Below are positions 17,360 to 59,786 of a stretch of DNA of 63,572 nt, one piece after another. The number at the start of each line of letters is the position of its first letter. The stretch's first letter is position 1. Origin of the DNA: Candidatus Limnocylindria bacterium (GTDB lineage: Bacteria; Chloroflexota; Limnocylindria; P2-11E); contig DATCNH010000047.1 in NCBI GenBank assembly GCA_036565345.1, forward strand, positions 1 through 63,572, read 5' to 3'. The notes under the pieces were generated by a model that had not been told where the DNA came from, ran no database searches, and saw only the letters and a program-made list of their open reading frames with translations. The position numbers and the translations under genes were made by a program.

Positions 17360-17363
17360 GGCC

Positions 17364-18931: not shown

Positions 18932-18964
18932 GTGCGGTGACCCCCCATATTCTCCGCCGAGTAT

Positions 18965-19774: not shown

Positions 19775-19780
19775 GGTCGG

Positions 19781-20746: not shown

Positions 20747-20768
20747 CGCCGACCACGGCGGCTTGGCC

Positions 20769-35535: not shown

Positions 35536-36624
35536 CTATGGGATCGGCGCCACCGGAAGCGCCGTGCTGGTCAGCGGCGGGGTGATCGGCGCGAGCAAGG
35601 CTGTCGGCAACGGGGCGACCGGGAGCGTCGGCGGCGGCGCGAGGGAGGCCGTCGGCAGTGGCGCGACCGGCAGGGTCGGCAGTGGCGCAAGCGAGAGCGT
35701 CGGCAGGGGACCGAGGGTCCCGATCGGCAGCGGTGCCGGCGTTCCGGCGGTCAGCGGCGAGATCGTCGCGATCGCGGGGCCGGCAGCGACGGACGACGGC
35801 GCCGTCGTGCCCGGCGTCGCGGGGCCCGCGGCGGACGGTCCGGCGAGCGGGGACGGGCTCGCACTCGACGAAACGTCTGAGCCCTGCGCCGGTGCCGGTG
35901 TGGCCGCGCTCGGCGGGGGCGCCGTGACCGCCGCTGCGGATGCGGTCGCCCGGGCGGAGAGCGGCGTGGGGGCGGTGGGAGCCGTGCCGGGGGCGGTGCG
36001 GGTCTCCATGCCGGCCGGCACGAGGACCGCGGCGCCGGCCGAGCTGACCGCGACGAGCCCTTCACTGGTGCGCTCAATGGCCGAGCCATCCGCGGCGACC
36101 ACGACCTCGAACTTCGTGCCGCGCACCGCCGCGGTCAGCGATGGCGTGCGGATCTCGTAGCGCGACCGTGGATCGACGAGCTTGTGGACGCTCGACACCG
36201 TCCGTCCGATCGTCTGCGCGATGAGCAGGTCGACCGCGCCGTCAGGCGAGGCTGCGGCAGAGACCGTCACCTCGGTCGCCGGCGCGAGCTCGAGCGTCGA
36301 TCCATCGAAGAAGGTGATGACCGCACGCCCGACAGCGTCGGTCCGCACCCGATCGCCCGAGACCACGGTCTCGCCGTCGGTGGCCGAGGTGTAGGCCGCG
36401 GTCCCGTGGGCCAGCTCGACCCGTCCCGCGAGGACCGCCAGCACGCTCGCCGGCCCGACCGCGCGGGTCTGGCCCGACAGCGCGAAGGGGATGAGCAAGG
36501 CGAAGGCGAGGACGATGGCAAGCACGATCGCGCTGCGGCGTTTCACTCGCCAAGCATTGGCCGGCGCCTGAAGAACGCGGTACCCCGTTCGGGGGACCCG
36601 AAGGTCAAAACATCGATACCTCAC
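35536..36624 (-). CDS. FecR-domain membrane-anchored protein with Pro-rich C-terminal repeats
   Basis: TM anchor AIVLAIVLAFALLIPFAL and FecR-like block GRVELAHG...GDRVRTDAVGRAVITFFDGSTLELAPATEVTV, then an Ala/Pro/Thr-rich tail. GTG 36624 overlaps the livF stop; a later start at VKRRSAIV is possible. Confidence 0.65.
   Translation of the reverse strand: MRYRCFDLRVPRTGYRVLQAPANAWRVKRRSAIVLAIVLAFALLIPFALSGQTRAVGPASVLAVLAGRVELAHGTAAYTSATDGETVVSGDRVRTDAVGRAVITFFDGSTLELAPATEVTVSAAASPDGAVDLLIAQTIGRTVSSVHKLVDPRSRYEIRTPSLTAAVRGTKFEVVVAADGSAIERTSEGLVAVSSAGAAVLVPAGMETRTAPGTAPTAPTPLSARATASAAAVTAPPPSAATPAPAQGSDVSSSASPSPLAGPSAAGPATPGTTAPSSVAAGPAIATISPLTAGTPAPLPIGTLGPLPTLSLAPLPTLPVAPLPTASLAPPPTLPVAPLPTALLAPITPPLTSTALPVAPIP
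35590..35733 (-). repeat. In-frame 24-nt tandem repeat (about 5-6 copies) encoding PLPT(L/A)xxA
   Basis: The protein reads PLPIGTLG-PLPTLSLA-PLPTLPVA-PLPTASLA-PPPTLPVA-PLPTALLA. On the plus strand, GTCGGCAG(T/G)GGCGC units recur every ~24 nt. Confidence 0.7.
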
Positions 36625-37310
36625 GCACCGAGGTACGCGCGTGCGACGCCGGGGTCGCGCAACAGCGCGGCGCCGGTGCCGGTCAGGCTGATCCGCCCCA
36701 ACTCCAGGACGTAGGCCCGGTCGGCGAGACGGAGGGCCCGGAGCGCGTTCTGCTCGACCAAGAGCATCGTCGTCCCACCGGCTTGAAGCTCCGCGAGGAC
36801 CTCGAACACCGTGGCCACCATCTTCGGCGCGAGGCCCAGGGATGGCTCGTCGAGCAGCAGCACCCGTGGCCGCGCGAGGAGGGCCCGCGCGATCGCGAGC
36901 ATCTGCTGCTCCCCGCCGGAGAGGTTGCCCGCCGGGAGCGCGCGGCGCTGGGCGAGGATCGGGAAGCGCGCATATCCCGCGTTCGGATCCGTGCCGCCTA
37001 GCAGCAGGTTCTCGTGCACCGACATCCGGGCAAGGATCGCCCGCCCCTCGGCGACCTGACTGATGCCCGCCCGAACGATCTGGTGCGGCGGCGCGCCGGT
37101 GAGGTCACGGCCCTGCAGGAGCACGCGGCCGCCGGCCGGACGGACGAGGCCGGAGATCGCGGCGAGGGTCGAGGACTTCCCCGCCCCGTTCGCGCCGATG
37201 AGCGCGACGACCTCGCCCGCGGCGACCTCGAAGCTGATCCCGCGGACCGCCTCGATCGCGCCGTACCGGACAACGAGGTCCTCGACCGCGAGCATCGCCG
37301 GCTCAGGCAT
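36621..37310 (-). CDS. livF: Branched-chain amino acid ABC transporter ATP-binding protein (LivF type), second system
   Basis: Walker A GANGAGKSS, signature LSGGEQQML, Walker B LLLDEPS, and the C-terminal ...AYLGA. Confidence 0.85.
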   Translation of the reverse strand: MPEPAMLAVEDLVVRYGAIEAVRGISFEVAAGEVVALIGANGAGKSSTLAAISGLVRPAGGRVLLQGRDLTGAPPHQIVRAGISQVAEGRAILARMSVHENLLLGGTDPNAGYARFPILAQRRALPAGNLSGGEQQMLAIARALLARPRVLLLDEPSLGLAPKMVATVFEVLAELQAGGTTMLLVEQNALRALRLADRAYVLELGRISLTGTGAALLRDPGVARAYLGA

Positions 37311-38055
37311 CGTCGGCCCCCAGATACGCCTCGCGCACGGTGGGATCCGCCTGGATCTGGGCGGGGGTGCCTTCGGCGATCTTCCGGCCGAAGTTCAGCA
37401 CCGCGACGCGGGCACAGGCGTCCATGACCAGCCGCACGTCGTGCTCGATAAGGATGATCGTGAGGCCGCCGGCGACCAGATCGGCCATCAGGGTCCGCAG
37501 CCCCACCGATTCGGTCGGGTTCATGCCGGCCGCCGGCTCGTCGAGGATGAGCAACCGGGGCTCCGACGCGAGGGCTCGTGCGATCTCGAGGCGGCGCTGA
37601 TCGCCGTACGCCAGCTCGCCCGCGAGTGCCGCGGCGCGCGCGCGCAGGCCGATGCGGTCGAGCAGCGCGAGCGCGGCGGCACGATCGGCCCAGCCGGTCG
37701 GGCGGAACGGCACGAGGCGGGCGAGGACATCGGAGCGCATCCGGACATGCCGGCCGACCAGGACATTCTCGAGGACGGAAAGGCCCTTGAAGAGGCGCAC
37801 GCCCTGGAACGTGCGGGTGAGACCGCGGCGCGTGAGGCGGTGTGCGGGCACGGCGGTGATGTCGTCGCCGCCGAACCGGACCGCGCCGGCATCGGCCTGG
37901 AGGTGGCCCGAGAGGAGGTTGATGAGCGTCGTCTTTCCCGCGCCGTTCGGCCCGATGAGCCCGAACACTTGACCCGCGGCGATGGCCAGGTCGACGCGGT
38001 CGACCGCGACCACGCCGCCGAAGCGCCGCGTGAGGCCGGCCGTCTCAAGCAACAT
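37303..38055 (-). CDS. livG: Branched-chain amino acid ABC transporter ATP-binding protein (LivG type), second system
   Basis: Walker A GPNGAGKTT, signature LAYGDQRRLE, Walker B LILDEPAAGM. Confidence 0.85.
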   Translation of the reverse strand: MLLETAGLTRRFGGVVAVDRVDLAIAAGQVFGLIGPNGAGKTTLINLLSGHLQADAGAVRFGGDDITAVPAHRLTRRGLTRTFQGVRLFKGLSVLENVLVGRHVRMRSDVLARLVPFRPTGWADRAAALALLDRIGLRARAAALAGELAYGDQRRLEIARALASEPRLLILDEPAAGMNPTESVGLRTLMADLVAGGLTIILIEHDVRLVMDACARVAVLNFGRKIAEGTPAQIQADPTVREAYLGADDA

Positions 38056-38917
38056 CGGCCGCTCCCACGCGCTGCAGTCGGCGGGTCCGCCGCAGCTGGA
38101 AGAGCGTGACGAGCCCGCGCGGCAGATAGACGATTACCAGGACGAGGACGGCCCCCTGGAAGATGTCGCGGTACTCCTGCAGGCCACGCAGGATCTCGGG
38201 CAGACCGGTGAACAGGAGCGCCCCCAGGAGCGGACCGAGCACGTTCGGGACCCCGCCGACGACGGCGAAGACGAGGATCTGGACCGCGCGCGCGAAGCCG
38301 AACTCATCGGGCTGGAGGGCGAAATTGAAGTGGGCGGACAGGCCGCCGGCCAGCCCGGCGATGAGCGCTCCGAGAACGAAGGCGAGGAGCTTGTAGCGGC
38401 GGACGGCGATGCCCTGGCTTGCCGCCGCGACCTCATCCTCACGGATCGCGGCCCAGGCCCGGCCGACGATCGACAGGCGGAGCCGCGCCAGAAAATAGGT
38501 GATGAGCGCCAGGGACAGATAGATCTGCCAAAGCTCGGTGGTCGCCGGGATGCCGACGAGGCCCTGTCCCTTCCCGGTGGCGGGGATCGCGAGGATGACA
38601 ACCCGGATGACCTCCCCGAACGCGAGCGTGGCGATCGCGAGGTACACCCCGCGCAGGCGGAAGACGGTCGCACCGAGCGGGAGCGAGACCAGTCCGGCGA
38701 GGAGCGCGCCGGCCAGCAGCGCGAGTGGGAACGGCAGGTCCGCGCGCATCGTGAGCAGCGCGGAGCTGTAGGCGGCGATCCCCATGAAGGCGGCGTTCCC
38801 CAGGGTGAGCTGGCCGCAATAGAGGGTGAGCCAGACAGAAAGCGCAAGGAGACCATTGATCCCGAGGACCCCGATCGTCGTCGAGTACGTGAGGAAGAGG
38901 TCATTCAGCCCATCCAT
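38045..38917 (-). CDS. livM: Branched-chain amino acid ABC transporter permease (LivM type), second system
   Basis: 290 aa polytopic protein with LTLGNAAFMGIAAY and GKGQGLVGIP motifs. Confidence 0.85.
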   Translation of the reverse strand: MDGLNDLFLTYSTTIGVLGINGLLALSVWLTLYCGQLTLGNAAFMGIAAYSSALLTMRADLPFPLALLAGALLAGLVSLPLGATVFRLRGVYLAIATLAFGEVIRVVILAIPATGKGQGLVGIPATTELWQIYLSLALITYFLARLRLSIVGRAWAAIREDEVAAASQGIAVRRYKLLAFVLGALIAGLAGGLSAHFNFALQPDEFGFARAVQILVFAVVGGVPNVLGPLLGALLFTGLPEILRGLQEYRDIFQGAVLVLVIVYLPRGLVTLFQLRRTRRLQRVGAADVA

Positions 38918-38919
38918 CG

Positions 38920-39795
38920 CTACACCCGGTCCGCGGGCTTCGCACCAAGCAGGCCGTTCGGCCGGACGAGAAGCACGATGAACAGGAGCCCGAACGCGAA
39001 CGCGTCACGGAGCTCGCTTGGAAGGAACGCGAGGCTGGCACTCTCCCCGAAGCTCAGAAGGTAGGCGCCCACGAGCGCACCGGGGATGCTCCCCATTCCT
39101 CCCACGACCATGACCGTGAACGCCTTCAGCTCGAACGGCAGGCCCATCTGCGAATACGGGCTGTTCGTCGCGAAGCCGTAAAGGACCCCCGCGACACCAC
39201 CCAGGCCAGCGCTGATGAAGAAGGTCGCGGCGATCGCGCGTTCCACATCGACCCCGAGCAAGCGCGCGGCTCGCGGATCCTCCGCGAGCGCGCGCAGCTG
39301 GCGGCCGAGCGTCGTGCGGCCCACGAGGAACGTGAGCCCGACCATCAGGAGCAGCGCGACGAGGATGATCACCAGACGCAGGCCGTCGAGCTGCGCTCCG
39401 CCGAGCTCGACCACCCCGGTGGGAACGCTCCCGGCCGGGTAGGCCTGCAGGTCCGGCCCGTAGCGGAGCTGGATGAGCCGGGTGAGGATGAGCGCCACCC
39501 CGATGCTCGAGATCATCGCCGAGAGCGGCGGCGCACCGCGACGCCGCAGCGGCGCGAACGCGATCCGGTCCAGGAGCACGCCAAGCAGACCGCAGACGAG
39601 GAATGCGATGACGAGCGCGAGCGGCGCCGGTATCCCGGCCTGCATCACGAAGAGCGCGGTGAACGCACCGACGGTGAAGATCGCGGGGTGCGCGAGGTTC
39701 AGGATGTCCAGCACCGAAAACACCAGGGTGAAGCCGAGAGCGAAGAGGGCGTAGATGCTCCCGACGAAGATCGCGTTGTAGATCTGGTCGGCCAC
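38920..39795 (-). CDS. livH: Branched-chain amino acid ABC transporter permease (LivH type), second system
   Basis: 291 aa. MADQIYNAIFVGSIYALFALGFTLVFSVLDILNLAHP is a canonical LivH N-terminus. Confidence 0.85.
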   Translation of the reverse strand: MADQIYNAIFVGSIYALFALGFTLVFSVLDILNLAHPAIFTVGAFTALFVMQAGIPAPLALVIAFLVCGLLGVLLDRIAFAPLRRRGAPPLSAMISSIGVALILTRLIQLRYGPDLQAYPAGSVPTGVVELGGAQLDGLRLVIILVALLLMVGLTFLVGRTTLGRQLRALAEDPRAARLLGVDVERAIAATFFISAGLGGVAGVLYGFATNSPYSQMGLPFELKAFTVMVVGGMGSIPGALVGAYLLSFGESASLAFLPSELRDAFAFGLLFIVLLVRPNGLLGAKPADRV

Positions 39796-39815
39796 GCCCG
39801 CAGGCTAAAGCAGAA

Positions 39816-39841
39816 GGGCGGGGACCTCACGGTCCCCGCCC
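39816..39841 (-). terminator. Intra-operon hairpin after the binding-protein gene (attenuating terminator / mRNA stabiliser)
   Basis: Perfect 11-bp stem GGGCGGGGACC / GGTCCCCGCCC with a 4-nt loop. On the minus strand it is followed by TTCTGCTTTAG. It sits between the SBP stop (39863) and the livH start (39795). Confidence 0.5.
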
Positions 39842-39862
39842 TGCGTCGATCCCGATGCGGTG

Positions 39863-41050
39863 CTAGTTGATCGGCGTGAACTTCCCGGCCTTGATCTGGA
39901 CCACGTAGACCTTCTGGGTCACGTCGTGGTCCTTGTTGAACGAGATCTCGCCCAGCGGCGTCCGCACGCCGGTGGTGAGCTCGATCTGGACCTTGAGCTT
40001 ATCGTGGAGCACGCTGTTCGGATTCGGCGTGCGCTTGAGGGCGTCCAGCAGGACGTAGAGCGCCGCGTACGCCTGCGCCGCGAACTGGTCGGGGTCCTTG
40101 CCGTACTTCGCCTTGTACGCAGCGACGAAGTCCTTGTTCTCGGCGGACGGGTTGTCGAGGTACCAGGCGGCACCGGAGATCGCGCCCTCGGCGGCTGCGC
40201 CGGCGGATGCCGCGATCGCCGGAGTGTTGAAGCCGTTGCCGCCCACGACCGGCAGGCCGGCCTTCCGCTTGGCGACCTCCTGCAGGATCTTGATCGCCGG
40301 GCCGGCCAGGGAGCTGTTCACGATGGCATCCGGAGTCTCGGCGACGGCCAGGATGACCGGGCCGGAGAGGTCGACGTCGTTCTTGGAGTACGCGATCTCC
40401 TTCTTGATCGTGATCCCGGCCGCCTCGAGGGCCTTCTTGAAGATCGCGAAGCCGTCGGAGCTGAACTTGTCGTCCTGGGCGTACATGAGGACCACGCTCT
40501 TGAGGCCGAGCTTGGCCTTCACCGTCTTGACCGTCTCGGGGATCGCCGTAGACTCGCCGAGCGAGACGCGGAAGACATAGTCACATGGTCCGTAGGAGCA
40601 CTTGCCGACGATTCCGTCGCCGGTGTTGCTGATCGCGATGACCGGGGTCTGCGCGCCCTGGGCGACCGGGTCGGCGGCGACCGCGGTACCGGACAGCGTC
40701 GGGCCGAGGATCGCGGCGACGCGATCCTGTTGCACGAGCTTCTTGAAGGCGGTGATCCCGCCGTCGGTCGTGGACTGGTCGTCCTCGATGACGAGCTGGA
40801 GCTTGGCGCCGTTCGCGCCGCCGGCGGCGTTGATGCGATCCGCGGCGAGCTGGACGCCGTTCTTCTGGGCCGGGCCGTAGGCGTTCCCCACGCCGGTGAG
40901 CGAGAGCGCCACCCCGACCTTGATGTCCGGCTTGCTCGCCGCGGTCGCGCTCGCGGCCGGGGCGCCGGACGCGCCGCCGGTACCGGTACCGCCGCAGGCG
41001 GCCAGCAGGACCGCGAGCACGGTGAAGATGCCGATGAGCCGTTTCGTCAT
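39863..41050 (-). CDS. ABC transporter substrate-binding lipoprotein (LivK/LivJ family), second system
   Basis: 395 aa. Lipobox LLAACGG and type I periplasmic binding fold blocks (GVALSLTGVGNAYG, ILGPTLSG). Confidence 0.85.
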   Translation of the reverse strand: MTKRLIGIFTVLAVLLAACGGTGTGGASGAPAASATAASKPDIKVGVALSLTGVGNAYGPAQKNGVQLAADRINAAGGANGAKLQLVIEDDQSTTDGGITAFKKLVQQDRVAAILGPTLSGTAVAADPVAQGAQTPVIAISNTGDGIVGKCSYGPCDYVFRVSLGESTAIPETVKTVKAKLGLKSVVLMYAQDDKFSSDGFAIFKKALEAAGITIKKEIAYSKNDVDLSGPVILAVAETPDAIVNSSLAGPAIKILQEVAKRKAGLPVVGGNGFNTPAIAASAGAAAEGAISGAAWYLDNPSAENKDFVAAYKAKYGKDPDQFAAQAYAALYVLLDALKRTPNPNSVLHDKLKVQIELTTGVRTPLGEISFNKDHDVTQKVYVVQIKAGKFTPIN

Positions 41051-41133: not shown

Positions 41134-41982
41134 TCAGGCGAGGTGACGCGGCCGGAGGTCGAGCAGCAGGCTGGCGAGCGAAAAGAGCGTCGCCAGGACC
41201 ACGCCGCAGGCGGCGAAGGCCGCCGGATCGCGGAGCGCGATCGACTGGAGGGCCACGAACCCGATCCCGTTCCAGAGCAGGAGATACTCCACGATCGGAA
41301 GGCTCGCGACGGCGATGCGCAGGCCGCTGCCGACCGCCTCCAGCGACAGCGGCAGCACATGCGGCAGGATGTGGACCCGAACGATCCAGCTCGGCAACAG
41401 CCCCTTGGCGTTCGCCGTATTCACGAAGTCGGCGTCGAACACCTCGGCCATCCGCACCGCGGTGAGCTGCGCGGTCATCGCGACGGCGGGAGCGGAGAGC
41501 GCAAGGAGCGGGAGGACCAGATGTCCGTCGAGGCCGAAGCCGAACACCGGAAGCACCGTCCGGCCAGCCGCTCCACCGATGAAGATGATGAGGATCTGCA
41601 GGAAGTAGGCGAGGAAGAACGACGGGATCGCGGCGACCACGCTCGTGAGCCCGAGGATCGCGCCGCTGCGGATCGCGCGTCGGCGGAGGAGCGCAGCGGT
41701 GATCCCGAGCAGCAGCCCGACGGTGAGCGAGAAGACGAGCACCCCGACAAGGAGCGCGAGGCTGCGTCCGGTGGCCGCGACGATCACCTCGGCGAGCGAG
41801 GCCTGATAGGTCTGCGCCACGCTCGGAGGGACGAGCTGCGGACCGCCGAACGACGATTGGCCCCGGGATGCGACGCCGATGCCAGGCGCGAGGATGAACG
41901 GGCCGTACCGAGCCATCGCGATGGGCGAGAGGACGGCGAACGCCGCCCAGAGCACGCCGATCGTCAGCGGGAACCGGGTCAT
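41134..41982 (-). CDS. ABC transporter permease, Opp/Dpp 'B' type
   Basis: ATG 41982, 282 aa, ~6 TM segments. EAA-loop region FVNTANAKGLLPSWIVRVHILPHVLPLSLEAVG. The 458-aa ORF is a spurious extension overlapping the upstream gene. Confidence 0.75.
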   Translation of the reverse strand: MTRFPLTIGVLWAAFAVLSPIAMARYGPFILAPGIGVASRGQSSFGGPQLVPPSVAQTYQASLAEVIVAATGRSLALLVGVLVFSLTVGLLLGITAALLRRRAIRSGAILGLTSVVAAIPSFFLAYFLQILIIFIGGAAGRTVLPVFGFGLDGHLVLPLLALSAPAVAMTAQLTAVRMAEVFDADFVNTANAKGLLPSWIVRVHILPHVLPLSLEAVGSGLRIAVASLPIVEYLLLWNGIGFVALQSIALRDPAAFAACGVVLATLFSLASLLLDLRPRHLA

Positions 41983-41999
41983 CCGGAACACGAGACGCC

Positions 42000-44348
42000 T
42001 CACCGCGGATGGAGCTCGGGGGCGCCTGCGGCGTAGCGACCGACCGCATATCCCACGACCGACGCGGCATCCGCACGCAGGTCGCTCCCCTCCGTCGCAC
42101 GACCGACCCCGCGGATGAGGACCCAATGGACGTCGGTCAGGGCGCCAAGACCGACCGCGACCATGAGGTCGCCGGCGGCGGCGGTGTCCGGGTCGATGGT
42201 CGCATCGGTGTGGAGCGCCGCCGCGCCGGTCCGGGTCGCGTACGCGTCGAACGCCGCGACCAGATCGCCGTAGGCGGTCGTGAAGCGCAGGGCCGATCCG
42301 GCGAGCGTGTCGATCGCGAGCACGACGTCCAGGGGCGTGGTGCCGAGGGCGGCCCGGACCGCCTTGGCGTTCGCCTGCGTGTCGCCGCGCGGGTCGAACA
42401 GCACCAGGGCGAGCGGCGGAAGGGGATGCCCGGCGAGAGACCGCGCGACCGCCGCGAGCAGGTCCTCGGCGCCACGCGTTCCGTCGGTGCGCGACGGCGC
42501 GACCGCCCACACGACCAGGCGATGTTCCCCTGCCGCGGCCGGCGTCAGGGCGACGAGGGACCGCGAGGCCGTGGTCACCGCGGCCACCGGCACGTCGACC
42601 CGCGCGGTCCCGGGAAGGGCCGCGGCGAGCGAGCGGCCGGAGGTGTAGGTCACCTCGCCCTCCCGCTGGCTCCGCAGGATCTCCGAGGCACGCGCGCCGA
42701 GCGGTGCGAGGATCCGATCCGCCGCCTCGACGCCCAGCAGCAGCACCGGGGTCCCGGCCGCGGCACCGAGCGGGTCGCCGGCCGCCAGGCGACGGTACGG
42801 GTCGGCCTGATTACCGGGAAGCGGGCGGCCGCGCTGGCCATCGACGTAGAGGATCGCTGCCGGGTGTCGCGCGATGAGGTTGCGGAGCTGCACATCCGGC
42901 GCGGGACCCTGCACCACTCCCCGACCGAGCCTGATGTTCGGCAAGCGGAGCAGCACGACGATCGCGCCCAGCACCGCGACCGTGGCCAGGTCGTCCTGCC
43001 AGGTGGCGATGTTCTGGCCCAGGTCGGGCGGCGAGAAGGGCCCGCGATCGGTCGGCGGATAGTCAAGGGGCGAGATGCCCCAGCCGGCGAACACCAGTCG
43101 AGCGTTGGCCGTGCCCCCGCCGGCCGGACCGAACAGGAGCGGCACGAAATCCCCCCCGGGGCCCTCGCGGAACGTCATCCGACCGGCGTCCGCGTCGACC
43201 TCGAGCGATGCCGTGCCGACCTGCTCGAAGCTGGTCGACCTGCGCTCGACCGGCGTGACCGCCAGACCCGCGGCGGCGAGGGCCGCGCCGGCGTCGGCGC
43301 CGATGACCGCGCGATCGCGGGCCGCGTGTCCGAGCTCGAGCGCTACGGCGTAACGGTCCGGCAGGACGAACGACGGGACGATCGAGAGGAGGATCGACAC
43401 GACGACGACGGCCGTGATCGGTGACCGCAGGTCGTGGAGCAGGTTGCGCCGCCGGTACTGCCGCGCAATGCCGATCCCGAGGATCGTCGCCCCGACCGCG
43501 GCGAGCGCGATCGCGGTACCCGGAACGAGGAACGCCCACCGGGTCACGTACAGGTTCTCGATGCCGCGGCCGAGGGCGAGCAGGCCGCCCCATTCGGGAA
43601 CATCCGGCACCCCGAAGCCGGTGCGGGCGCCATTCGGTACGACGGCCATCGCCTCGGCCAGGTCGATCGCGCGGCGCGGTCCGACGAAGATCCCGATGAC
43701 CCCGAGCTCCGCCAGCGCAACGAGCGCCGTGGCGATCTGTTGGCTCGCCGACACCGCGAGGACCGGGACCAGATGCGGCAGGTGATGGCGAAGCAGCACC
43801 TCGCGGCGACGTACGCCGAGCGCCCGGGCGCCTTGGGTGAACTGCGCGACGCGCAGCCGTCCGAGCTCCGCACGCAGGACGCGATACGGCCCGGCCCAGC
43901 CGGTGACGAGCAGCGCGCCCACGAACACCGCGGCGGGGGCGCCCTGCTGACCGAAGGCAAGCACAAAGAAGACCGCCACGATCGTCGATGGCACCGCGGA
44001 CACCAGGTCGGCGAGCCCGTCCAACGCCAGGCGTGCGGTGTGGGACCAGCTTCCGGTGACCGCCAGGAGGAAGCCGACGGCCAGGCGGGCCAAGCCGGCC
44101 AGGACGACGATCGCCAGGGTCGTCCTGGCGCCGGCAAGCACGAGGCTGAAGAGGTCCCGGCCGAGCGCGTCCGAACCGAAGAGGAACGGCCGGCCCGGCG
44201 GGAGCGGACGCACGTCCCCGCCGGGTGCGTTCACCAACAGATAGAACGGCTCGTTCGGCGCGATCCGCTCCCCGTACACGCCCACGAACAGGAGGACGCT
44301 GGCGATCGCCAGACCGACCGCCAGCCAGGGATCGATCCGACGCTGCAT
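42000..44348 (-). CDS. Opp/Dpp 'C' type ABC permease fused to an extra TM helix and a ~450-aa extracytoplasmic PA/M28-like (non-catalytic) domain
   Basis: aa 1-300 form the permease (EAA loop GARALGVRRREVLLRHHLPHLVP). A 7th helix ITAVVVVSILLSIVPSFVL spans aa 310-329. aa 330-782 are a soluble domain with PA-like GAIVVLLRLP...AAILYVD...GTPVLLLGVEAADRIL and M28-like HRLVVWAVAPS...GTRGAEDLLAAVARSL...LVLFDPRGD blocks, without the His/Asp/Glu ligands. Confidence 0.7.
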   Translation of the reverse strand: MQRRIDPWLAVGLAIASVLLFVGVYGERIAPNEPFYLLVNAPGGDVRPLPPGRPFLFGSDALGRDLFSLVLAGARTTLAIVVLAGLARLAVGFLLAVTGSWSHTARLALDGLADLVSAVPSTIVAVFFVLAFGQQGAPAAVFVGALLVTGWAGPYRVLRAELGRLRVAQFTQGARALGVRRREVLLRHHLPHLVPVLAVSASQQIATALVALAELGVIGIFVGPRRAIDLAEAMAVVPNGARTGFGVPDVPEWGGLLALGRGIENLYVTRWAFLVPGTAIALAAVGATILGIGIARQYRRRNLLHDLRSPITAVVVVSILLSIVPSFVLPDRYAVALELGHAARDRAVIGADAGAALAAAGLAVTPVERRSTSFEQVGTASLEVDADAGRMTFREGPGGDFVPLLFGPAGGGTANARLVFAGWGISPLDYPPTDRGPFSPPDLGQNIATWQDDLATVAVLGAIVVLLRLPNIRLGRGVVQGPAPDVQLRNLIARHPAAILYVDGQRGRPLPGNQADPYRRLAAGDPLGAAAGTPVLLLGVEAADRILAPLGARASEILRSQREGEVTYTSGRSLAAALPGTARVDVPVAAVTTASRSLVALTPAAAGEHRLVVWAVAPSRTDGTRGAEDLLAAVARSLAGHPLPPLALVLFDPRGDTQANAKAVRAALGTTPLDVVLAIDTLAGSALRFTTAYGDLVAAFDAYATRTGAAALHTDATIDPDTAAAGDLMVAVGLGALTDVHWVLIRGVGRATEGSDLRADAASVVGYAVGRYAAGAPELHPR

Positions 44349-44424
44349 CCACCGGACCGTACAGGGCGGACCCGGCCGGGGTTCGATACACTTCGCATTC
44401 GCTTCAGTCGGAGGGAGAGAGCAC

Positions 44425-44742
44425 GTGAGCCTTCAGGACAAGACCCTGACCTGCAACAACTGCAGCCAGCAGTTCATCTGGTCGGCAGGCGAGCAGGAGT
44501 TCTACCAGCAGCGCGGTCTCCAGAACCCGCCCGGCCGGTGCAAGGATTGCCGCGCCGCGCGGCGCTCCGAGACCCGCGGTGGCGGCGGCGGTGGCGGCTT
44601 CGCGGGTGGTGAGCGGCAGATGTTCACCGCGACCTGCTCCAGCTGTGGCCAGGAGGCGAAGGTGCCCTTCCAGCCGCGCGGCGACAAGCCGGTCTACTGC
44701 AGCGCCTGCTTCGAGCAGCAGCGTGGCGCACGGAGGTACTAG
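44425..44742 (+). CDS. Double zinc-ribbon protein (CxxC-x21-CxxC, Gly linker, CxxC-x17-CxxC)
   Basis: 105 aa with GTG start and GGAGGGAG RBS. LTCNNCSQQFIWSAGEQEFYQQRGLQNPPGRCKDCR, then a GGGGGGG linker, then TCSSCGQEAKVPFQPRGDKPVYCSACF. A widespread small bacterial zinc-ribbon family. Confidence 0.75.
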   Translation: MSLQDKTLTCNNCSQQFIWSAGEQEFYQQRGLQNPPGRCKDCRAARRSETRGGGGGGGFAGGERQMFTATCSSCGQEAKVPFQPRGDKPVYCSACFEQQRGARRY

Positions 44743-44955
44743 ATGAAGTCGGGCGGATTCCCCTGTCGGTTTGGCGGCTGCGACGTTCGCTTCCAGGTCG
44801 TTGACCAAAGCTCCATGCAATCGCTCCTCGCCGCGAGCGAGCAGCGGACCCAGCACGAAGTGACGACGCATGACTACCACCACCAGAAGATCGAGGACAC
44901 CCCGCCGAACTACGCGAAGGGACCGCTGAAGGTCCGTAAGGCGGAGTTCGTCTAG
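44743..44955 (+). CDS. Small Cys/His-containing protein (hypothetical)
   Basis: 70 aa. The ATG immediately follows the upstream TAG, with GGAGG 6 nt upstream. GC3 is high. FPCRFGGCDVRF...HEVTTHDYHH. Confidence 0.55.
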   Translation: MKSGGFPCRFGGCDVRFQVVDQSSMQSLLAASEQRTQHEVTTHDYHHQKIEDTPPNYAKGPLKVRKAEFV

Positions 44956-44984: not shown

Positions 44985-45015
44985 AGAGCGCCATCCGGCA
45001 TTCGGATGGCGCTCT
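44985..45015. terminator. Bidirectional hairpin between convergent genes
   Basis: Perfect 13-bp stem AGAGCGCCATCCG / CGGATGGCGCTCT with loop GCATT. The right arm overlaps the TAA of the minus-strand MFS gene. Confidence 0.5.
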
Positions 45016-46241
45016 TACGTACTCGACGTTCGCCGATCCCCGAGATAGACCGCCACCGCCGCGACGCCAGACAGTCCGAACAACGCCCACAGACCGGGGG
45101 CGTAGGAGCCCGCCGCGTCATAGACCAGACCGAGGCCGACCGGCGACACCGCCTGGGTGAGCATGGTGAACAGCGTGACCGCGGCGTAGATGCTCGCGAA
45201 GCGCGCCGGACCGTAGAGGCCGGCGGTGAGCGTCGACCGAAGGAGCGTCTCCATGCCGCGCCCGGCACCGAACAACAGGACGAAGAGCACGACGCCGACG
45301 ACATTCGGGACCAAGAGGAGCACGAGAAGCGCGAGCGGCTGGGCGGCATAGATGAGGACCGACAGTGTGCGTGGGGCGACCCGGCCCTCCAACGGCGCGA
45401 AGAACAGTCGGCCGAAGACCTGGGCCGCGCCGATCGCGCCGGTCGCCGCCGCGGCGAACCCGAGCGAGTAGCCGTGATCACCGAGATACGCGACCAGATG
45501 CACCGGAACCCCGACCCCGAGCGCGAACAGGGCGAACGCGAGGGCGATCCATTTGAACGTCGGTTGCCGGAGGGCCTCGCGCGGCGACGAGCTGAGCTCC
45601 GGCGGATGCGGGCTCGGGACGTCGACCGGGTCTCCGTCCACTGCGAGGCCGAGATCGCTCGGCCGGCGGCGGAGGAACACCGCATGCGGGACGATCGTCA
45701 CCGCCGCGAGGATCACCGCCAGGGTCAGCAGGGCGTCGCGGCGGCCCTGGACCACGACCAGCCACGCCGCCAGCGGTACGAAGATCGTGCTCGCCAGGCC
45801 GGCCATGAGGGTGAGGACGGTGAGCGCGCGCGCGCGGCGGCGGCGGAACCACACCGTGACCGTGGCGAGCGCCGGTCCGTACAGCACTGTCGCCATGACC
45901 ATGCCGAGGAGCGCCCAGACGGCATAGAACGAAAGCAGGTCACGGGCCTGCGACCAGGCGACGACGAGTGCGGTGGCGGCGACCGACCCCACGGTCATGA
46001 GCAGGCGCGGTCCGTGATCGTCGAGCCACCGGCCGACGAACAATCCGGAGATCCCCGACACGACGAGCGCGAGGGAGAACGCTCCGGCGATCTCGGCTCG
46101 GGACCAGCCGAGCTCGGCCGAGGTCGGGGTCACGAAGACGCTGAACGTGTAATAGACGACGCCCCAGGACACCGTCTCGGTGACGCCAAGCACGAGCACG
46201 ATGACCCAGCCGTAGTACGGTGCGGTCCCCGGCCTGATCAT
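45015..46241 (-). CDS. MFS transporter (oxalate/formate antiporter-like subfamily)
   Basis: 408 aa and ~12 TM segments. YYGWVIVLVLGV N-terminus and GRWLDDHGPRLL motif. Confidence 0.85.
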   Translation of the reverse strand: MIRPGTAPYYGWVIVLVLGVTETVSWGVVYYTFSVFVTPTSAELGWSRAEIAGAFSLALVVSGISGLFVGRWLDDHGPRLLMTVGSVAATALVVAWSQARDLLSFYAVWALLGMVMATVLYGPALATVTVWFRRRRARALTVLTLMAGLASTIFVPLAAWLVVVQGRRDALLTLAVILAAVTIVPHAVFLRRRPSDLGLAVDGDPVDVPSPHPPELSSSPREALRQPTFKWIALAFALFALGVGVPVHLVAYLGDHGYSLGFAAAATGAIGAAQVFGRLFFAPLEGRVAPRTLSVLIYAAQPLALLVLLLVPNVVGVVLFVLLFGAGRGMETLLRSTLTAGLYGPARFASIYAAVTLFTMLTQAVSPVGLGLVYDAAGSYAPGLWALFGLSGVAAVAVYLGDRRTSST

Positions 46242-46267
46242 CCCAGGGACGCTAACCGAGTGGGCGG

Positions 46268-46341
46268 TACGGCTGGAGGGGCTCGAACCCCCGACCTCAA
46301 CGTTCGTAGCGTTGCGCTCTATCCAACTGAGCTACAGCCGC
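46268..46341 (-). tRNA. tRNA-Arg (anticodon ACG)
   Basis: Minus strand: GCGGCTG-TA-GCTCAGTTGGATAGAGC-G-CAACG-CTACGAA-CGTTG-AGGTC-GGGGG-TTCGAGC-CCCTC-CAGCCGT-A. 74 nt with a G1:U72 pair; followed by CC. Confidence 0.9.
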
Positions 46342-46475
46342 GCGCGTGGAAGGTCAGTTTACCGGATACCGCCGGCTGGCGGGCCGCCAGCTGCACGAGC
46401 GCGGGCCCGCCTGGCCGCCGCGGCACGCCGGATGCATACATCCACCGGAAAGGGACAGCCCTGGAGGAGCGGCGG

Positions 46476-46844
46476 ATGGACGCAGCGGAACGGCCGATCG
46501 ACGCGAGAGCCGTCGCGGTGGCCGAGCAGGCGATGCTCGGCCGCGAGGGCGAGCGTGCGGCACGAGACATCCTCAGCAGTCTCTGTGACCCGACTCGTCT
46601 GAAGATCGTCCGTGCGCTGAACCAGACCCCGCTCGCGGCGAGCGATCTCGCACGCGTCATCAAGCGCAGCCGCGCCGCGACCAGCCAGCACCTCAAGGTG
46701 CTGCGGGACGTCGACGCGGTCGTGCCGGCCCGCCAGGGCAATATCGTCCGGTACCGCCTGTCGAGCAACGTGAGCGCGCAGGTGCTTGCGGACGTCGGCC
46801 GCGCGTTCGAGCGCCTGGCCGGGAGCGAGGCCGCCAGCGGCTAG
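46476..46844 (+). CDS. ArsR/SmtB family transcriptional regulator
   Basis: ATG 46476 with GGAGGAG RBS, 122 aa. Winged [46 protein letters not shown]. It is only the tail of a 612-aa spurious ORF. Confidence 0.85.
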
Positions 46845-46855: not shown

Positions 46856-48439
46856 ATGCCGGTCCTCCGCTCGTCATTCGACCGCAGCTCGCCCGGCGCC
46901 CACGCGAATTCGACGGCGATGACCGCACTGGTCGAGGACTTGCGCCGCCGCCTCGCCACCGCCCGCGAGGGCGGCCCAGCCCGCTCCCGCGACAAGCACA
47001 CGAGGGCCGGTAAGCTGCTGCCCCGCGAGCGGGTCGAGCGGCTGCTGGATCCAGGTTCGGCGTTCCTCGAGATCGGCGCGCTCGCGGCGCTCGACCTCTA
47101 TGACAACGACGCGCCAGGTGCCGGCATGATCGCCGGGATCGGCCGGGTGTCCGGCACCGAGTGCGTCATCGTCGCGAACGACGCGACGGTCAAGGGTGGC
47201 ACCTACTACCCACTGACGGTGAAGAAGCATCTCCGTGCGCAGGAGATCGCGCTCGAGAACCGGCTCCCCTGCCTCTATCTGGTGGACTCGGGCGGGGCGT
47301 TCCTTCCGCGGCAGGATGAGGTCTTCCCCGACCGCGAGCACTTCGGCCGGATCTTCTTCAATCAGGCGCGGATGTCGGCGGAGCGCATTCCGCAGCTCGC
47401 CTTGGTGATGGGCTCGTGCACCGCCGGCGGCGCGTACGTCCCCGCGATGAGCGACGAGACGGTCATTGTGAAGGGTCAGGGCACGATCTTCCTGGGCGGT
47501 CCGCCGCTGGTGAAGGCCGCCACCGGCGAAGAGGTGACCGCCGAGGAGCTGGGCGGAGCCGAGGTCCACGCCCGCACGAGCGGTGTCGCAGACCACTACG
47601 CCCTCGACGACGCCCACGCGATCGCGATCGCGCGCGACATGGTCGCGCAGCTCGACCGCCCGCTCCAATGGGGCACCGAGGTGGCCGAACCCGAGGATCC
47701 GGCCCACGACCCCGCCGATCTCTACGCGATCGTGCCGCAGGACACTCGTACGCCGTACGACGCGCGCGAGGTCATCGCGCGACTCGTCGACGGGTCACGG
47801 TTCCACGAGTTCAAGGCCCTCTACGGGGAGACGATCGTCTGCGGCACGGCCCGGATCATGGGAATGCGGGCCGGGATCATCGCGAACAACGGCATTCTGT
47901 TCAGCGAATCGGCGCTGAAGGCCACGCACTTCATCGAGCTCTGCGACCAGCGGGGCATTCCGCTCGTGTTCCTGCAGAACATCGCCGGATTCATGGTCGG
48001 CCGGGAGTACGAGGCCGGCGGCATCGCCAAGGATGGCGCGAAGATGGTCATGGCCGTCGCCTGCACGCGCGTGCCCAAGTTCACGGTGATCGTCGGCGGC
48101 TCGTTCGGCGCAGGCAATTACGGGATGTGCGGCCGGGCCTACGGCCCCCGACAGCTCTGGATGTGGCCGAACGCGCGAATCAGCGTCATGGGCGGCGAGC
48201 AGGCCGCGACCGTCCTGTCGCTCGTCGGGACGTTCGCCGGTGACGCCGAGCGTGACGCGTTCAAAACGACGATCCGCGACCAGTACGAGGCCCAGGGATC
48301 CCCCTATTACTCCACCGCCCGGCTGTGGGACGACGGGGTCATCGACCCGCTGGATACGCGCGCGGTCCTGGCGCTCGGCATCGCCGCGGCGCGGCACGCC
48401 CCCCTGGCTGAGCCGCGCTACGGCGTGTTCCGGATGTAG
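46856..48439 (+). CDS. Methylcrotonyl-CoA carboxylase beta (carboxyltransferase) subunit
   Basis: 527 aa. Long identical stretches to MCCC2-type proteins: [68 protein letters not shown] and [19 protein letters not shown]. Confidence 0.9.
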
Positions 48440-48445: not shown

Positions 48446-49264
48446 GTGTCCGAGCTCGTCCGCCTGGCGGTCGATCGGCGCGGCGTCGCGGCGATCACGA
48501 TCGCACGTCCCGAGCGCAAGAACGCCTTCGACGCGGCGCTCATCGCCGACCTCACCGGCGCGGTCGCGGCCGTCCCGGCCCACGCCCGCTGCGTTGTCCT
48601 GGCGAGCGAGGGCGACGCCTTCTGCGCCGGCGCCGATCTGGACTGGATGCGCGGGATGGCCGGGTACTCGCTCGAGGAGAACCGCGCGGATTCCGCGGCG
48701 CTCGCCGGGCTGTTCGGCGCGCTGGACGCCCTCCCGATGCCGCTCCTCGCGCGGGTCCAGGGCGCGGCGATCGGCGGCGGCGCCGGCCTCGTCGCCGTGG
48801 CCGATATCGCGGTCGCGACAGACGCCGCGGTGTTCGCGTTCACCGAGGTGCGCTTGGGGATCATGCCGGCGGTCATCTCGCCGTATGTGGTGCGAAAGGT
48901 CGGGCCGGCGTTCGCGACGGCGGCCTTCACGACCGGCATCCGCTTCGACGCGCATCGCGCGTTCGAGGTCGGTCTGGTCGAGAGCGTCGTCCACGACCAC
49001 GAGCTGGACCGGCAGATCGATGCCTTCGTCGTCGCGATCCTGTCCGGTGGCCCGGAGGCGGTCCGCGCGGCGAAGCGCCTCGTCCGCGAGGTGACCGGCC
49101 GCGCCCCTGCCGACGTTCGTGACCTGACGGTGGATCGGATCGCCGCGATCCGGGTCGGCGACGAGGGCCAAGAGGGCATGCGTGCGTTCCTCGAGCGCCG
49201 CGCCCCGAGCTGGGCACCGCCGGGGGTCTCCACCGGAGGGCCGCCCGAGGAGCGAAAGGCTTAG
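48446..49264 (+). CDS. Enoyl-CoA hydratase family protein (methylglutaconyl-CoA hydratase position)
   Basis: 272 aa with a GTG start. AITIARPERKNAF, DAFCAGADLDWM and GAAIGGGAGLVA. It sits directly after MCC beta, as liuC does in liu clusters. Confidence 0.8.
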   Translation: MSELVRLAVDRRGVAAITIARPERKNAFDAALIADLTGAVAAVPAHARCVVLASEGDAFCAGADLDWMRGMAGYSLEENRADSAALAGLFGALDALPMPLLARVQGAAIGGGAGLVAVADIAVATDAAVFAFTEVRLGIMPAVISPYVVRKVGPAFATAAFTTGIRFDAHRAFEVGLVESVVHDHELDRQIDAFVVAILSGGPEAVRAAKRLVREVTGRAPADVRDLTVDRIAAIRVGDEGQEGMRAFLERRAPSWAPPGVSTGGPPEERKA

Positions 49265-49569
49265 CCCAGACCGAGGACCCGCAGGGCGGCCACCGCGGCG
49301 ACTCCGGAGAGGACCCCGGCCAAGAGATTCCGTCGCCAGGCGACCACGGCGATCACCACGAGCGCGGCAAGCGGCTCGGCGCCATGGGTGACCTCGCCAT
49401 GCGGAACGACCAGGCCAGGTCCGACGAGCGCGGCGATCATCGCGGTCGGCAGCACGTCCAGGTAGCGGGCGAGGCGCCGTGGCACCGGGCGGGACGAGCG
49501 CAACGCGAGCGGGAGCGCGCGGAGGAGATAGGTCGCGAGTCCCGCCCCACCGATCGCGAGCCAGATCAC
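49261..49569 (-). CDS. azlD: AzlD branched-chain amino acid transport protein
   Basis: 102 aa, ~3-4 TM segments. LATYLLRALPL motif. GTGA-coupled to azlC. Confidence 0.75.
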   Translation of the reverse strand: MIWLAIGGAGLATYLLRALPLALRSSRPVPRRLARYLDVLPTAMIAALVGPGLVVPHGEVTHGAEPLAALVVIAVVAWRRNLLAGVLSGVAAVAALRVLGLG

Positions 49570-50246
49570 CCCTCGTCAGCCACGATGAGGACCGCAAGCG
49601 GTGCGAGCAGCCCAGCAAGGACGACCGCAACGACCGACGCGCCGGCAAGAGCCAGGGCCGCGGACACGAGCGCCGCCGTGACCGCCACGACGAGATCCGC
49701 ACGATGGCGGACGCCAAGCACCACGATCGCCAGGAAGGTGGCCGTGATCGCGAGATCGATGCCGTACCGCCGTGGGTCGGTGATCACCGGCCCCAGGGTG
49801 AGCCCGATCGCCGTCGCCAGGTTCCACAACACGTAGAGCGCGACAGCGAAGGTCAGGTAGTAGGCGACCTCGCGCCTCCCGCGGCGCGTCCATCCGGTCG
49901 CCATCGCGAACGCTTCATCGGTCAGGAAGAATGCGGCACCGAGCCGACGAGGAATGGTCAGTTTGCCGAGGAGTGGTCGGACCGAAGCGGACATGAGCGC
50001 GTGACGGAGGTTCACCAGGAACACGGTGGCGATGATCAACGGGACCGATCCGCCGTCGGTGAACAGCTGGACCATTGCGAACTGCGACGCCCCGGCGAAG
50101 ACGAAGAGGCTCATCGCGATGATCTCGACCGGAGCAAGGCCGGCCTGCCGCGCGACGATGCCGAATGGCACGCCGACGACGAACACCGAGATGAGGACCG
50201 GCCACCCTTCGGCGAGCGCGGCACGTCTAGCCGACAATGCCGACAT
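49566..50246 (-). CDS. azlC: AzlC family branched-chain amino acid exporter subunit
   Basis: ATG 50246, 226 aa. GVPFGIVARQAGL, FAGASQFA and FLVNLRHALMS are AzlC blocks. Confidence 0.8.
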   Translation of the reverse strand: MSALSARRAALAEGWPVLISVFVVGVPFGIVARQAGLAPVEIIAMSLFVFAGASQFAMVQLFTDGGSVPLIIATVFLVNLRHALMSASVRPLLGKLTIPRRLGAAFFLTDEAFAMATGWTRRGRREVAYYLTFAVALYVLWNLATAIGLTLGPVITDPRRYGIDLAITATFLAIVVLGVRHRADLVVAVTAALVSAALALAGASVVAVVLAGLLAPLAVLIVADEG

Positions 50247-57100: not shown

Positions 57101-57391
57101 GCGCTGGTGGATTTCGACGGGCATGCCGGAGAGCGCGAGCTCCTCGAGGCGCTCGGTCGGACGATCGACGGCACCGCGGCGGAGGGACCGTTCGCCGTCG
57201 CCGCGGTGCACCTCGGCGAACGGGGGCTCGCGCTGGCGACGGCATTCGCGGCCGAGGCGGTCGCGGCGATCCGGCCTAAGGCGGATCTTCCGGATGCGGT
57301 ACGGGCCGCGGCGGCGGCCACGCTGGCCGAGGCCGGTGCGACCTGGCTGGCGGGCCGGTTCAGCGGAAGCGGGAGTCTCGCTCCACCCTGA
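54143..57391 (+). CDS. Class III cyclase-homology domain / AAA (STAND) ATPase / TPR-like repeat protein
   Basis: 1082 aa. The CHD has FLFTDLRDYT and IKTEGDSFYIVF (metal Asp residues) and GGAVIVAARL. P-loop GEPGIGKSAF and Walker B LLLVLEDLHWVDEAS. A long Ala/Leu-rich helical repeat tail follows, with no C-terminal HTH seen. Confidence 0.8.
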   Translation: MARTPRGRDSANARVTRVFLFTDLRDYTRFVEAHGDVAATRLLRDYRTIVRREVTRTRGAEIKTEGDSFYIVFESAVPALDCAVAILKRVRAHNAKHPDRALQVGAGLHAGDAITYDDQYVGGAVIVAARLSTKAAAGELLVSDTTRGLVRTGQTHRLVERGTVVLKGVSESIRVWSVDFGDAQSGTSTAQAPLPNAELQRRAEPGQLICPVLIGRERELAAFRTILVDASAGRGGIVFVSGEPGIGKSAFAREAAGVANVAGYRLMAGAALQWESGLPYGPFLSALRSGFQGDALRDAITRVAPDIAPLLPELGHAPVAADSPLERHRIGRAFTDLLTTLSKQAPLLLVLEDLHWVDEASIALLQQLARELLRTPVVVLITYRSDEVLRRHPLSTLVADLARARLSTAMTLQALDQADTERLIRATLSGVPLDQETQAAIYARSEGNALFTEELLKSLVGAGAIVHQADRGWQPGGGAQLRLPETLRDLVIGRVERLRPSTVATLAAASIIGGRFDYDTLRRVRGIEEAELTNDLRQAVDEQLVVEQREGDGSFAFRHALTREVIYDDLLLPERQRLHLLVAAALVAGEHAPPAIVARHWRAGGDRQRAAQAYEMAGNDALAVNAASEAVAAFEAAITASGQATSAHYLGLARAYLAIDHLKARSAAERGTALLTEADGLGRRIDLLHIAGRARWLMGDGSGNLELARSAVDLVRDETDSPVKADALAWFAGALSTRGDTADAREWAERALAVAKATGARSIAAAALLTLAACESIGSPRTALQLCDEAAAVARGARAAETLARAHADGIAYSFQVENERPRFIRIERAAEFGRRYGYGASQFAGYRAFQLFASGRWPADGSFGVAGDADADVYVSWVRLLEAVIACARLGPTAERRSALRRLVDRAARQDEPQWAVPWLSYAALVEGWADAQDDVRATADQMTSFASRAASPERSLTLLCRGLPSAAIALFLGSDRERLAAMAAALVDFDGHAGERELLEALGRTIDGTAAEGPFAVAAVHLGERGLALATAFAAEAVAAIRPKADLPDAVRAAAAATLAEAGATWLAGRFSGSGSLAPP

Positions 57392-59784: not shown

Positions 59785-59786
59785 CG

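Follow-up and report, generated by a model that had tools for sequence, protein, structure and literature searches.

To our knowledge, all characterised type I ATP-binding cassette (ABC) importers receive their substrate from a receptor of the periplasmic-binding-protein fold, whether this receptor is free, lipid-anchored or fused to the transporter. Fusion is represented by OpuA (PMC7673798) and GlnPQ (PMC8025302), in which receptor domains tethered to a membrane subunit remove the need for a diffusible binding protein. Here, we describe a two-gene locus on contig DATCNH010000047.1 of a Candidatus Limnocylindria bacterium, lying in a stretch of 63,572 nucleotides (nt) that was analysed as a whole and is referred to as the window, in which an OppC-type membrane subunit continues into a seventh transmembrane (TM) helix and a large domain resembling an aminopeptidase without its catalytic residues. 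On the membrane side, the closest described relatives are the OppC/DppC/NikC subunits (TC 3.A.1.5; Mycobacterium tuberculosis OppABCD 8J5Q and DppABCD 8WD9, Escherichia coli DppBCDF 8Z1V), with which the fusion shares the six-TM core of PF00528, the GxD..GRD loop motif after the first helix, the EAA coupling loop and an adjacent, overlapping gene of OppB/DppB type. Unlike these subunits, the fusion carries the seventh helix (TM7) and, beyond it, a domain of 452 amino acids (aa) that is predicted to be extracytoplasmic. The pair comprises the following features.

42000-44348, minus strand: fusion gene, 782 aa, an uninterrupted open reading frame (ORF) for an OppC-like membrane domain, TM7 and an ectodomain of pseudo-aminopeptidase type, in which a protease-associated (PA) domain is joined to an M28-like one
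43449-44348, minus strand: OppC/DppC/NikC-type membrane domain, aa 1-300, six TM helices (PF00528, NCBIfam ranking, PDB sequences)
43764-43841, minus strand: EAA (coupling-helix) loop, aa 170-195, FTQGARALGVRRREVLLRHHLPHLVP (conserved columns)
43362-43421, minus strand: TM7, aa 310-329, signal-anchor-like, with RQYRRRN just before it (hydropathy, AlphaFold2)
42003-43358, minus strand: PA-containing M28-like domain, aa 331-782 (452 aa), predicted to be extracytoplasmic and catalytically dead (AlphaFold2, Foldseek, hhalign)
42654-43088, minus strand: PA insert, about aa 421-565 (column-wise alignment to the PA region of genuine peptidases)
41134-42003, minus strand: partner gene, 289 aa, OppB/DppB/NikB-type membrane subunit, most likely with a GTG start (PF00528, NCBIfam, PDB sequences)

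The fusion ORF has a GC content at third codon positions of 0.89, typical of genes in this window of ~70% GC. An initial annotation, made from the letters alone, had read its beginning as an OppC/DppC-type subunit, a reading with which the uninterrupted translation, PF00528 and the NCBIfam ranking agree. PF00528 (BPD_transp_1) matches aa 91-219 with 45 bits against a gathering cut-off of 26.4, and permeases of the Opp4C/NikC/DppC type take the top NCBIfam ranks; because every one of these scores is far under the equivalog cut-off, the fusion does not count as orthologous to any system characterised so far. In a PDB sequence search, the closest solved sequences to the membrane domain were M. 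tuberculosis OppC (8j5q_C, 6e-13) and DppC (8wd9_C). The loop motif FGSDALGRDL is invariant in the family alignment, as are 15 of the 39 columns of the EAA loop in alignment A1, and the pattern FTEGA.A.G......RHHLPHLVP is present in all 17 full-length fusion members, the most distant included. Such conservation of the EAA loop suggests that an ATPase partner would still be needed.

The gene that follows, first described as a DppB-like permease at 41134-41982, is indeed of OppB/DppB/NikB type, with 63.5 bits to PF00528, Opp2B and NikB as the NCBIfam leaders (again far under equivalog cut-offs), and DppB (8z1v_A, 8wd9_B) as its closest PDB sequences; its EAA loop reads TANAKGL......V..H.LPH. What has to be corrected is the start, which is most likely the GTG at 42003 rather than the ATG at 41982, as this in-frame GTG overlaps the TGA of the fusion as GTGA and the resulting 289 aa match homologues of 290 aa. 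Through this overlap, the two genes are probably translationally coupled. In all loci of sufficient length, the partner comes right after the fusion, with a 4-nt overlap in the database gene calls.

Beyond TM7, a PA insert within an M28 scaffold had been recognised by eye, and structure prediction, Foldseek and profile-profile comparison all bear this out. The AlphaFold2 model of the ectodomain, built on an 18-sequence family alignment (A2), has a mean predicted local distance difference test score (pLDDT) of 89.1 and a predicted template modelling score (pTM) of 0.77, and a Foldseek search of the PDB with this model placed 2ek8 (Aneurinibacillus, E 8e-16), PaAP of Pseudomonas aeruginosa (8ac-series entries), BSAP of Bacillus subtilis (6hc6), transferrin receptor 1 (TfR1) and glutamate carboxypeptidase II (GCPII) on top. 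All 50 matches listed for the ectodomain were M28 peptidases or receptors, with no substrate-binding protein (SBP) among them, and the M28 proteins returned were ones with a PA insert; across many M28 structures, E-values ran from 8e-16 to 1e-10. TM-scores were about 0.5, a level to be expected of two-lobed proteins whose lobes are oriented differently to each other. With the full-length fusion model, M28 matches were returned again and membrane-domain structures were not ranked. At the level of profiles, hhalign aligned query residues 23-323 of the ectodomain family to 15 genuine PA+M28 peptidases (99.6%, E 1e-23), and in a profile search of 1.84 billion representatives the remote matches beyond the family, at 1e-9 to 1e-4, were likewise genuine PA+M28 peptidases, matched on the PA region. 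The insert itself follows the pattern VFAGWGISP ... W.DD.A.V.V.G..V.L.RL ... AAIL.VD ... PV..L....ADRIL.

Direct family assignment gave a divided picture, as the expectation of Pfam- or HHpred-type hits on aa 330-782 was borne out by hhalign and by weak PF02225 (PA) matches in 7 of the 18 family members (best 7e-4), but not by any direct Pfam match in the window protein, which had no PF02225 match either. PF04389 (M28) matched neither the window protein nor the 18 members, even at E<=10. Pfam and NCBIfam yielded nothing of its own on the ectodomain, and the ectodomain alignment, run as a profile against the PDB sequences, had 0 matches at E<=10. The annotation 'ABC transporter permease subunit' conceals 450 residues of unrecognised domain.

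In PaAP, the two zinc ions are held by His296, Asp308, Glu341, Asp369 and His467, and Glu340 acts as the general base (PMC11313473). When 22 members of the fusion family, including the most distant, were compared at these positions, HxD was found to read (V/I)W(A)xx and the Glu-Glu position (R/H/S/T/G/Q)(G/V/A/L/I), never EE, in keeping with the earlier view that the catalytic and metal motifs are substituted. The segment equivalent to GADDNASG, which holds the bridging Asp, is variable across the family, and the fourth zinc-ligand position is mostly Asp or Glu. The mapping of the last His is of low confidence, as hhalign (relaxed settings) and the secondary-structure reading disagree, and a conserved His stands at neither position. 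As no fewer than three ligands, together with the general base, are missing throughout the family, the ectodomain is a pseudo-peptidase, catalytically dead as judged from its residues. Family-specific motifs are conserved instead, namely FDP.xD, YGDL.PA.D.YA and GDLR.DAAA..GY..GR.A.GA.EL.

Six-TM OppC/DppC subunits have a cytoplasmic C-terminus, and the addition of one helix would therefore carry aa 331-782 outside the cell. TM7 is the top hydropathy peak of the whole fusion protein (2.63), and the full-length AlphaFold2 model (pLDDT 76, pTM 0.58) contains helices at aa 7-29, 66-101, 103-132, 139-167, 169-176 (the EAA helix), 181-221, 262-300 and 310-328. Both the EAA loop and the loop preceding TM7 are rich in Arg, which is consistent with a cytoplasmic position of the latter. 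The places first given for the EAA loop, for ARQYRRRN and for the hydrophobic helix (aa 310-329) are confirmed, and the proposed topology of seven TM helices with the C-terminal domain outside is backed by the AlphaFold2 helices, hydropathy and the positive-inside rule. An extracytoplasmic ectodomain, as predicted by this rule, would lie where all its structural relatives act.

The fusion architecture is well established. An ectodomain-only query returned 29 clusters, of which the full-length ones measure 766-786 aa and carry PF00528, and the profile search of the 1.84 billion representatives gave 56 matches at E<1e-10, every full-length one being 766-826 aa long with the domain from near aa 330. 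Matches of 440-597 aa, considered as candidates for stand-alone ectodomain proteins, are truncated gene calls whose first residues fall within TM5, TM6 or TM7; no stand-alone ectodomain gene was found among the 1.84 billion representatives. About 56 protein clusters have the fusion architecture, nearly all from Candidatus Limnocylindria, and the architecture is continuous in dozens of independent assemblies (JGI, ENA, NCBI, Logan) at identities of 36-81%. The 26 loci from species-representative genomes carry the label Candidatus Limnocylindria or unclassified Chloroflexota, bar one (L015, DATJHW010000079.1) labelled Candidatus Saccharimonadales; despite this label, its gene order (fusion, Liv, DAGK-like) is that typical of Limnocylindria, and it is probably a mis-binned contig. 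Paralogues exist, with three pairs on one contig (L002) and two copies in each of two metagenome-assembled genomes.

Pairwise identity averages 70% over the membrane domain, falls to 48% in the TM7 linker and stands at 54% in the ectodomain. In this lineage of high third-position GC, dS saturates near 0.8-0.9, and the ratio of nonsynonymous to synonymous substitution rates (dN/dS) was therefore taken from only the three gene pairs that have diverged least. It is 0.10-0.18 in their membrane domains and 0.15-0.21 in their ectodomains, and hence the ectodomain is kept by purifying selection.

As the initial annotation had it, the window encodes neither an Opp/Dpp ATPase, since tblastn with ABC ATPases returned only Liv-type ones, nor a family-5 SBP, none being found among the scanned ORFs of at least 400 aa (shorter ORFs outside 33-57 kb were only partly scanned). 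The same holds more widely. Within 10 kb on either side of the pair, no OppD/F-type ATPase (ABC_tran + oligo_HPY) was found in 37 related loci, drawn from at least two syntenic contexts, and 25 of these have no ABC ATPase of any kind in that range; the ones within that range in the remaining loci are Liv-type beside LivHM, MalK-type in a sugar operon, ABC2-exporter type and one other Liv-like (HAAT-like). A family-5 SBP (PF00496) is absent from the Pfam lists of 11 loci and from the 25 of 70 neighbour families listed for loci L009-L031, where a single-member family may sit outside the listing. Adjacent DppDF and family-5 SBP genes are accordingly not routine in the orthologous loci, which had been named as the arrangement that would make this an ordinary fragmented operon.

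What does lie downstream in the window is a different importer.

36621-41050, minus strand: Liv-type importer (LivK, LivH, LivM, LivG, LivF), co-directional, 83 nt downstream of the pair, context only (Pfam)

This complete operon and the 83-nt gap are as first described. The order of fusion, DppB-like gene and LivK had been expected to be conserved; it is so in the one clade orthologous to the window (at least 50% identity), in which 0-4 genes are inserted, but not in other clades, where at least 12 loci lack Liv genes (L002, L008, L016, L022, L027-L031, L035-L037). In a second clade (36-48% identity), the pair stands between DUF1786/nucleobase-permease genes and a DUF1015 gene; loci L028, L029 and L035-L037 have the DUF1786 gene and a xanthine/uracil-family permease gene upstream of the pair and the DUF1015 gene, convergent, downstream. 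The pair is an autonomous two-gene module.

Taken together, we consider it an even proposition that fusion and partner form the membrane core of an importer of the Opp/Dpp/Nik type, with the surface pseudo-enzyme as its ligand-capturing module. The pair would be the heterodimeric membrane core of a type I ABC importer specific to Candidatus Limnocylindria. In the simplest account of its origin, an OppC-like gene may have been fused with a neighbouring gene for a membrane-anchored aminopeptidase, and TM7 would be the signal anchor of what was once a membrane-bound peptidase in its own right, taken over when a stop codon was lost. The pseudo-enzyme, displayed on the cell surface and tethered directly to the translocator, would capture its ligand without catalysis. 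The most plausible ligands are peptides, which may be recognised through a putative remnant of the cleft in which the PA and M28 lobes of the aminopeptidase held its substrate, and their capture would raise the local substrate concentration at the OppBC-like pore or hand the substrate over to it. Since the EAA loops are conserved in both subunits and no ATPase lies next to the pair, the ATPases are most likely encoded in trans; the energy would thus come from Opp-type ATPases encoded elsewhere, perhaps serving all of the 2-3 paralogous pairs that a genome has.

Physiology offers circumstantial agreement. Limnocylindraceae reportedly depend on external amino acids and peptides, with partial amino-acid auxotrophy (PMC13212565), and the closest structural relatives of the ectodomain are leucine-preferring aminopeptidases (PMC11313473), a type from which it may descend. 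Auxotrophy of this kind and a neighbourhood of branched-chain amino-acid genes agree with a function in obtaining peptides or amino acids. In the window, this neighbourhood includes, besides the Liv importer, genes for a methylcrotonyl-CoA carboxylase (MCC)-like carboxyltransferase (46856-48439), an enoyl-CoA hydratase (48446-49264), AzlD/AzlC (49261-50039, minus strand) and a biotin carboxylase with the BT domain of MCC-alpha (50026-52176); the theme of leucine or peptide acquisition that it suits is seen in this clade only.

Several points weigh against such an importer. A cognate ATPase or binding protein was not found in the window or in the 37 loci, and a genome that keeps its ATPases apart from the pair may do so with a classical SBP as well. 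The inter-domain confidence of the full-length model is only moderate, as its pTM indicates. The segment that replaces the zinc site is partly variable, unlike a tightly conserved binding pocket, and conservation of the ectodomain as a whole is below that of the membrane domain. Only in one clade does the neighbourhood have an amino-acid theme. The strongest form of the proposal, that the pseudo-aminopeptidase is the sole receptor, giving the first case of specificity conferred on a type I importer by a dead enzyme, with 2-3 paralogous pairs each having its own receptor and sharing ATPases in trans, appears to us rather improbable, and full replacement of the binding protein by the ectodomain is similarly doubtful.

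The alternative that survives best is an ordinary SBP-dependent Opp-type importer, whose SBP and OppD/F are encoded elsewhere and whose dead domain is an accessory rather than the receptor; it is possible, though we would not expect it. The domain could then offer an SBP, or an active exopeptidase, a site for docking or scaffolding, provide a tether to the cell wall or act as a stabiliser. Conserved EAA loops mean that at least the ATPases are supplied in trans, unlinked SBPs are common in Opp systems, and the partial variability of the former active-site segment would suit an accessory part. PA domains of related enzymes have, moreover, been discussed as modules for protein interaction or substrate recruitment (PMC11313473). 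However, no family-5 SBP was seen in the 37 loci or among the window ORFs of at least 400 aa, a domain of 450 aa above OppC would be expected to compete sterically with the docking of an SBP, and each paralogue keeps an ectodomain of its own, as expected of a specificity determinant.

It is less probable, and in our judgement unlikely, that the pair is not a transporter at all, the membrane proteins serving as an ATPase-free platform for a surface pseudo-enzyme with a function in sensing, signalling or scaffolding. That an ATPase of the matching class stands beside the pair in no locus or clade speaks for such a platform; in addition, two of the three pairs on L002 follow genes for extracytoplasmic function (ECF) sigma factors and ~500-aa proteins, and FecR-domain proteins recur downstream in the Liv clade. 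The EAA loops, however, are among the best-conserved parts of both subunits, also in the most distant members, which is difficult to account for unless an ATPase takes part; constraint on the membrane domains exceeds that on the ectodomain, and the association with sigma factors is confined to one contig.

Release of the ectodomain is improbable, too. TM7 might act as an internal signal peptide, with cleavage after the A-x-A stretch at aa 334-336 setting the ectodomain free as a secreted or wall-associated protein, and the region has a positively charged n-region (RQYRRRN), a hydrophobic core of 19 residues and small residues at A-x-A, of which Ala336 is invariant. The closest relatives by Foldseek are also secreted enzymes (PMC11313473). 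But the A-x-A belongs to an ectodomain helix that is predicted with confidence, and the lack of any stand-alone ectodomain gene among the 1.84 billion representatives suggests that linkage to OppC matters.

Energisation of the OppBC-like pair by the LivG and LivF downstream, as parts of one hybrid operon, is very improbable. The genes are co-directional across the 83-nt gap, no terminator-like site lies between partner and livK, and the order is preserved in the orthologous clade. Yet LivG/F partner LivH/M (BPD_transp_2), which form another importer class, 1-4 unrelated genes intervene between pair and Liv in L004, L005 and L011, and the loci of other clades do without Liv genes altogether. 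The other flank of the Liv clade is equally syntenic (carboxyltransferase, PAP2, or the small zinc-finger and 70-aa genes), so that the adjacency reflects synteny of the lineage and not coupling; with paralogous clades lacking Liv, this coupling was rejected. Finally, that the long ORF results from a merger of oppC with a peptidase gene by an assembly error or a frameshift has a negligible chance of being true and was rejected: nothing was found in its favour, the window ORF has no stop or change of frame, and the same fusion recurs in independent assemblies and orthologues.

Some further observations concern the loci in which the pair is found. On L002, an 87-kb metagenome contig, the three fusion and partner pairs lie within 22 kb (1-22343); the second pair comes directly after an ECF sigma factor gene and an overlapping gene for a ~500-aa protein without a Pfam match, which may be an anti-sigma factor, and another such sigma/~500-aa gene pair lies between the first and second fusion and partner pairs. 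Directly downstream of LivF in the orthologous clade is a gene for a FecR-domain protein, which in the window spans 35536-36624 (minus strand, 362 aa), reaches about 1600 aa in L001 (17938-22310) and is also present in L005, L011 and L019. Divergent from the fusion, at 44425-44955 (plus strand), the window encodes a 105-aa treble-clef zinc-finger protein (zf_Tbcl + zf_Tbcl_2) and a family-less protein of 70 aa; the latter is unusually conserved, being 84-95% identical across loci where the fusion is only 50-60% identical. Between these genes and the fusion lies the presumed promoter region.

44349-44424, no strand: divergent intergenic region, 76 nt, upstream of the fusion gene, presumed promoter region (sequence read)

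No sigma-70 consensus was found in these 76 nt. A terminator scan gave three terminator-like sites, all within coding sequence and at about chance level.

Elsewhere in the window, a 612-aa ORF at 45006-46844 (plus strand) is probably spurious, as codon composition and Pfam favour an MFS transporter gene at 45015-46241 (minus strand) and a short ArsR-type regulator gene at 46260-46844 (plus strand). A second Liv-type system occupies part of 11590-24232, with ATPases at 11590-13013, permeases and an SBP at 14891-16114, and adjoins a thiolase (16160-17482) and two acyl-CoA synthetases (20769-24232). A 1082-aa adenylate/guanylate cyclase + AAA_16 protein is encoded at 54143-57391 (plus strand), and the genes at 59391-61145 (plus strand) are for an M20-family peptidase and then a DAO-type oxidoreductase.

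If the dead aminopeptidase is the only extracytoplasmic module of the importer, an unrelated fold can fill the slot of the receptor, and a bacterial case would be added to the peptidase scaffolds that were turned into surface binding modules, of which the transferrin receptor is an example. Even with a classical binding protein still in use, the family would represent a clean conversion of an enzyme to a binding module tied to transport, in an abundant, uncultured lineage of soil and freshwater Chloroflexota (Limnocylindria). In a literature search of incomplete coverage, no description of an M28/PA or other peptidase-like domain fused to an ABC importer permease was found, and a search for C-terminal extensions of OppC and for bacterial non-peptidase M28 homologues, with the same limit of coverage, gave nothing relevant.

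Set beside the known systems, the pair differs from those of the Opp/Dpp/Nik type also in its genetics, as no OppD/F or family-5 SBP was seen in cis at the 37 loci. With the bacterial PA-M28 aminopeptidases (Aneurinibacillus AM-1 aminopeptidase 2EK8; PaAP 8AC7/8ACR; BSAP 6HC6), the ectodomain shares the two-lobe fold with PA inserted in M28 (E 8e-16 to 3e-13), the PA motifs VFAG[WY]GI and DDYA.VDV.GK.VL and, by prediction, an extracytoplasmic location. Unlike these enzymes, it has no HxD, no Glu-Glu and no conserved second His, and hence neither a di-zinc site nor a general base, and it does not match M28 in Pfam; PaAP contains three disulfides, whereas the ectodomain has no Cys. Nor is it a free secreted protein, being fused to a transporter subunit.

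TfR1 is likewise an inactive PA+M28 scaffold at the membrane surface on a single N-terminal TM anchor (Foldseek E about 4e-14). In contrast to the TfR family (the M28B non-peptidase homologues), the fusion has no TFR_dimer and ends about 10 residues past the last M28 helix, it is of bacterial origin, and its anchor helix continues from a six-TM transporter subunit. TM-scores normalised to the length of TfR/GCPII are 0.29-0.36, and membership of the transferrin-receptor family is ruled out by these values, the missing dimerisation domain and the lack of a Pfam match. Of the original label 'M28/transferrin-receptor-like', the PA-M28 fold therefore stands, but without the helical dimerisation domain 'bacterial PA-M28 aminopeptidase-like' is more apt. 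Nicastrin of gamma-secretase is, we presume, another inactive M28-like receptor of eukaryotes.

In overall design, the fusion comes closest to OpuA/OpuABC, GlnPQ and OpuF, where an extracytoplasmic domain is also covalently tethered to the translocator through an anchoring helix. The tethered domains of these importers have the canonical periplasmic-binding-protein fold, whereas that of the fusion is a pseudo-peptidase unrelated to SBPs, and these importers encode their ATPase in the same operon, which the fusion pair does not. The likeness is one of architecture, and a receptor function is proposed for the ectodomain.

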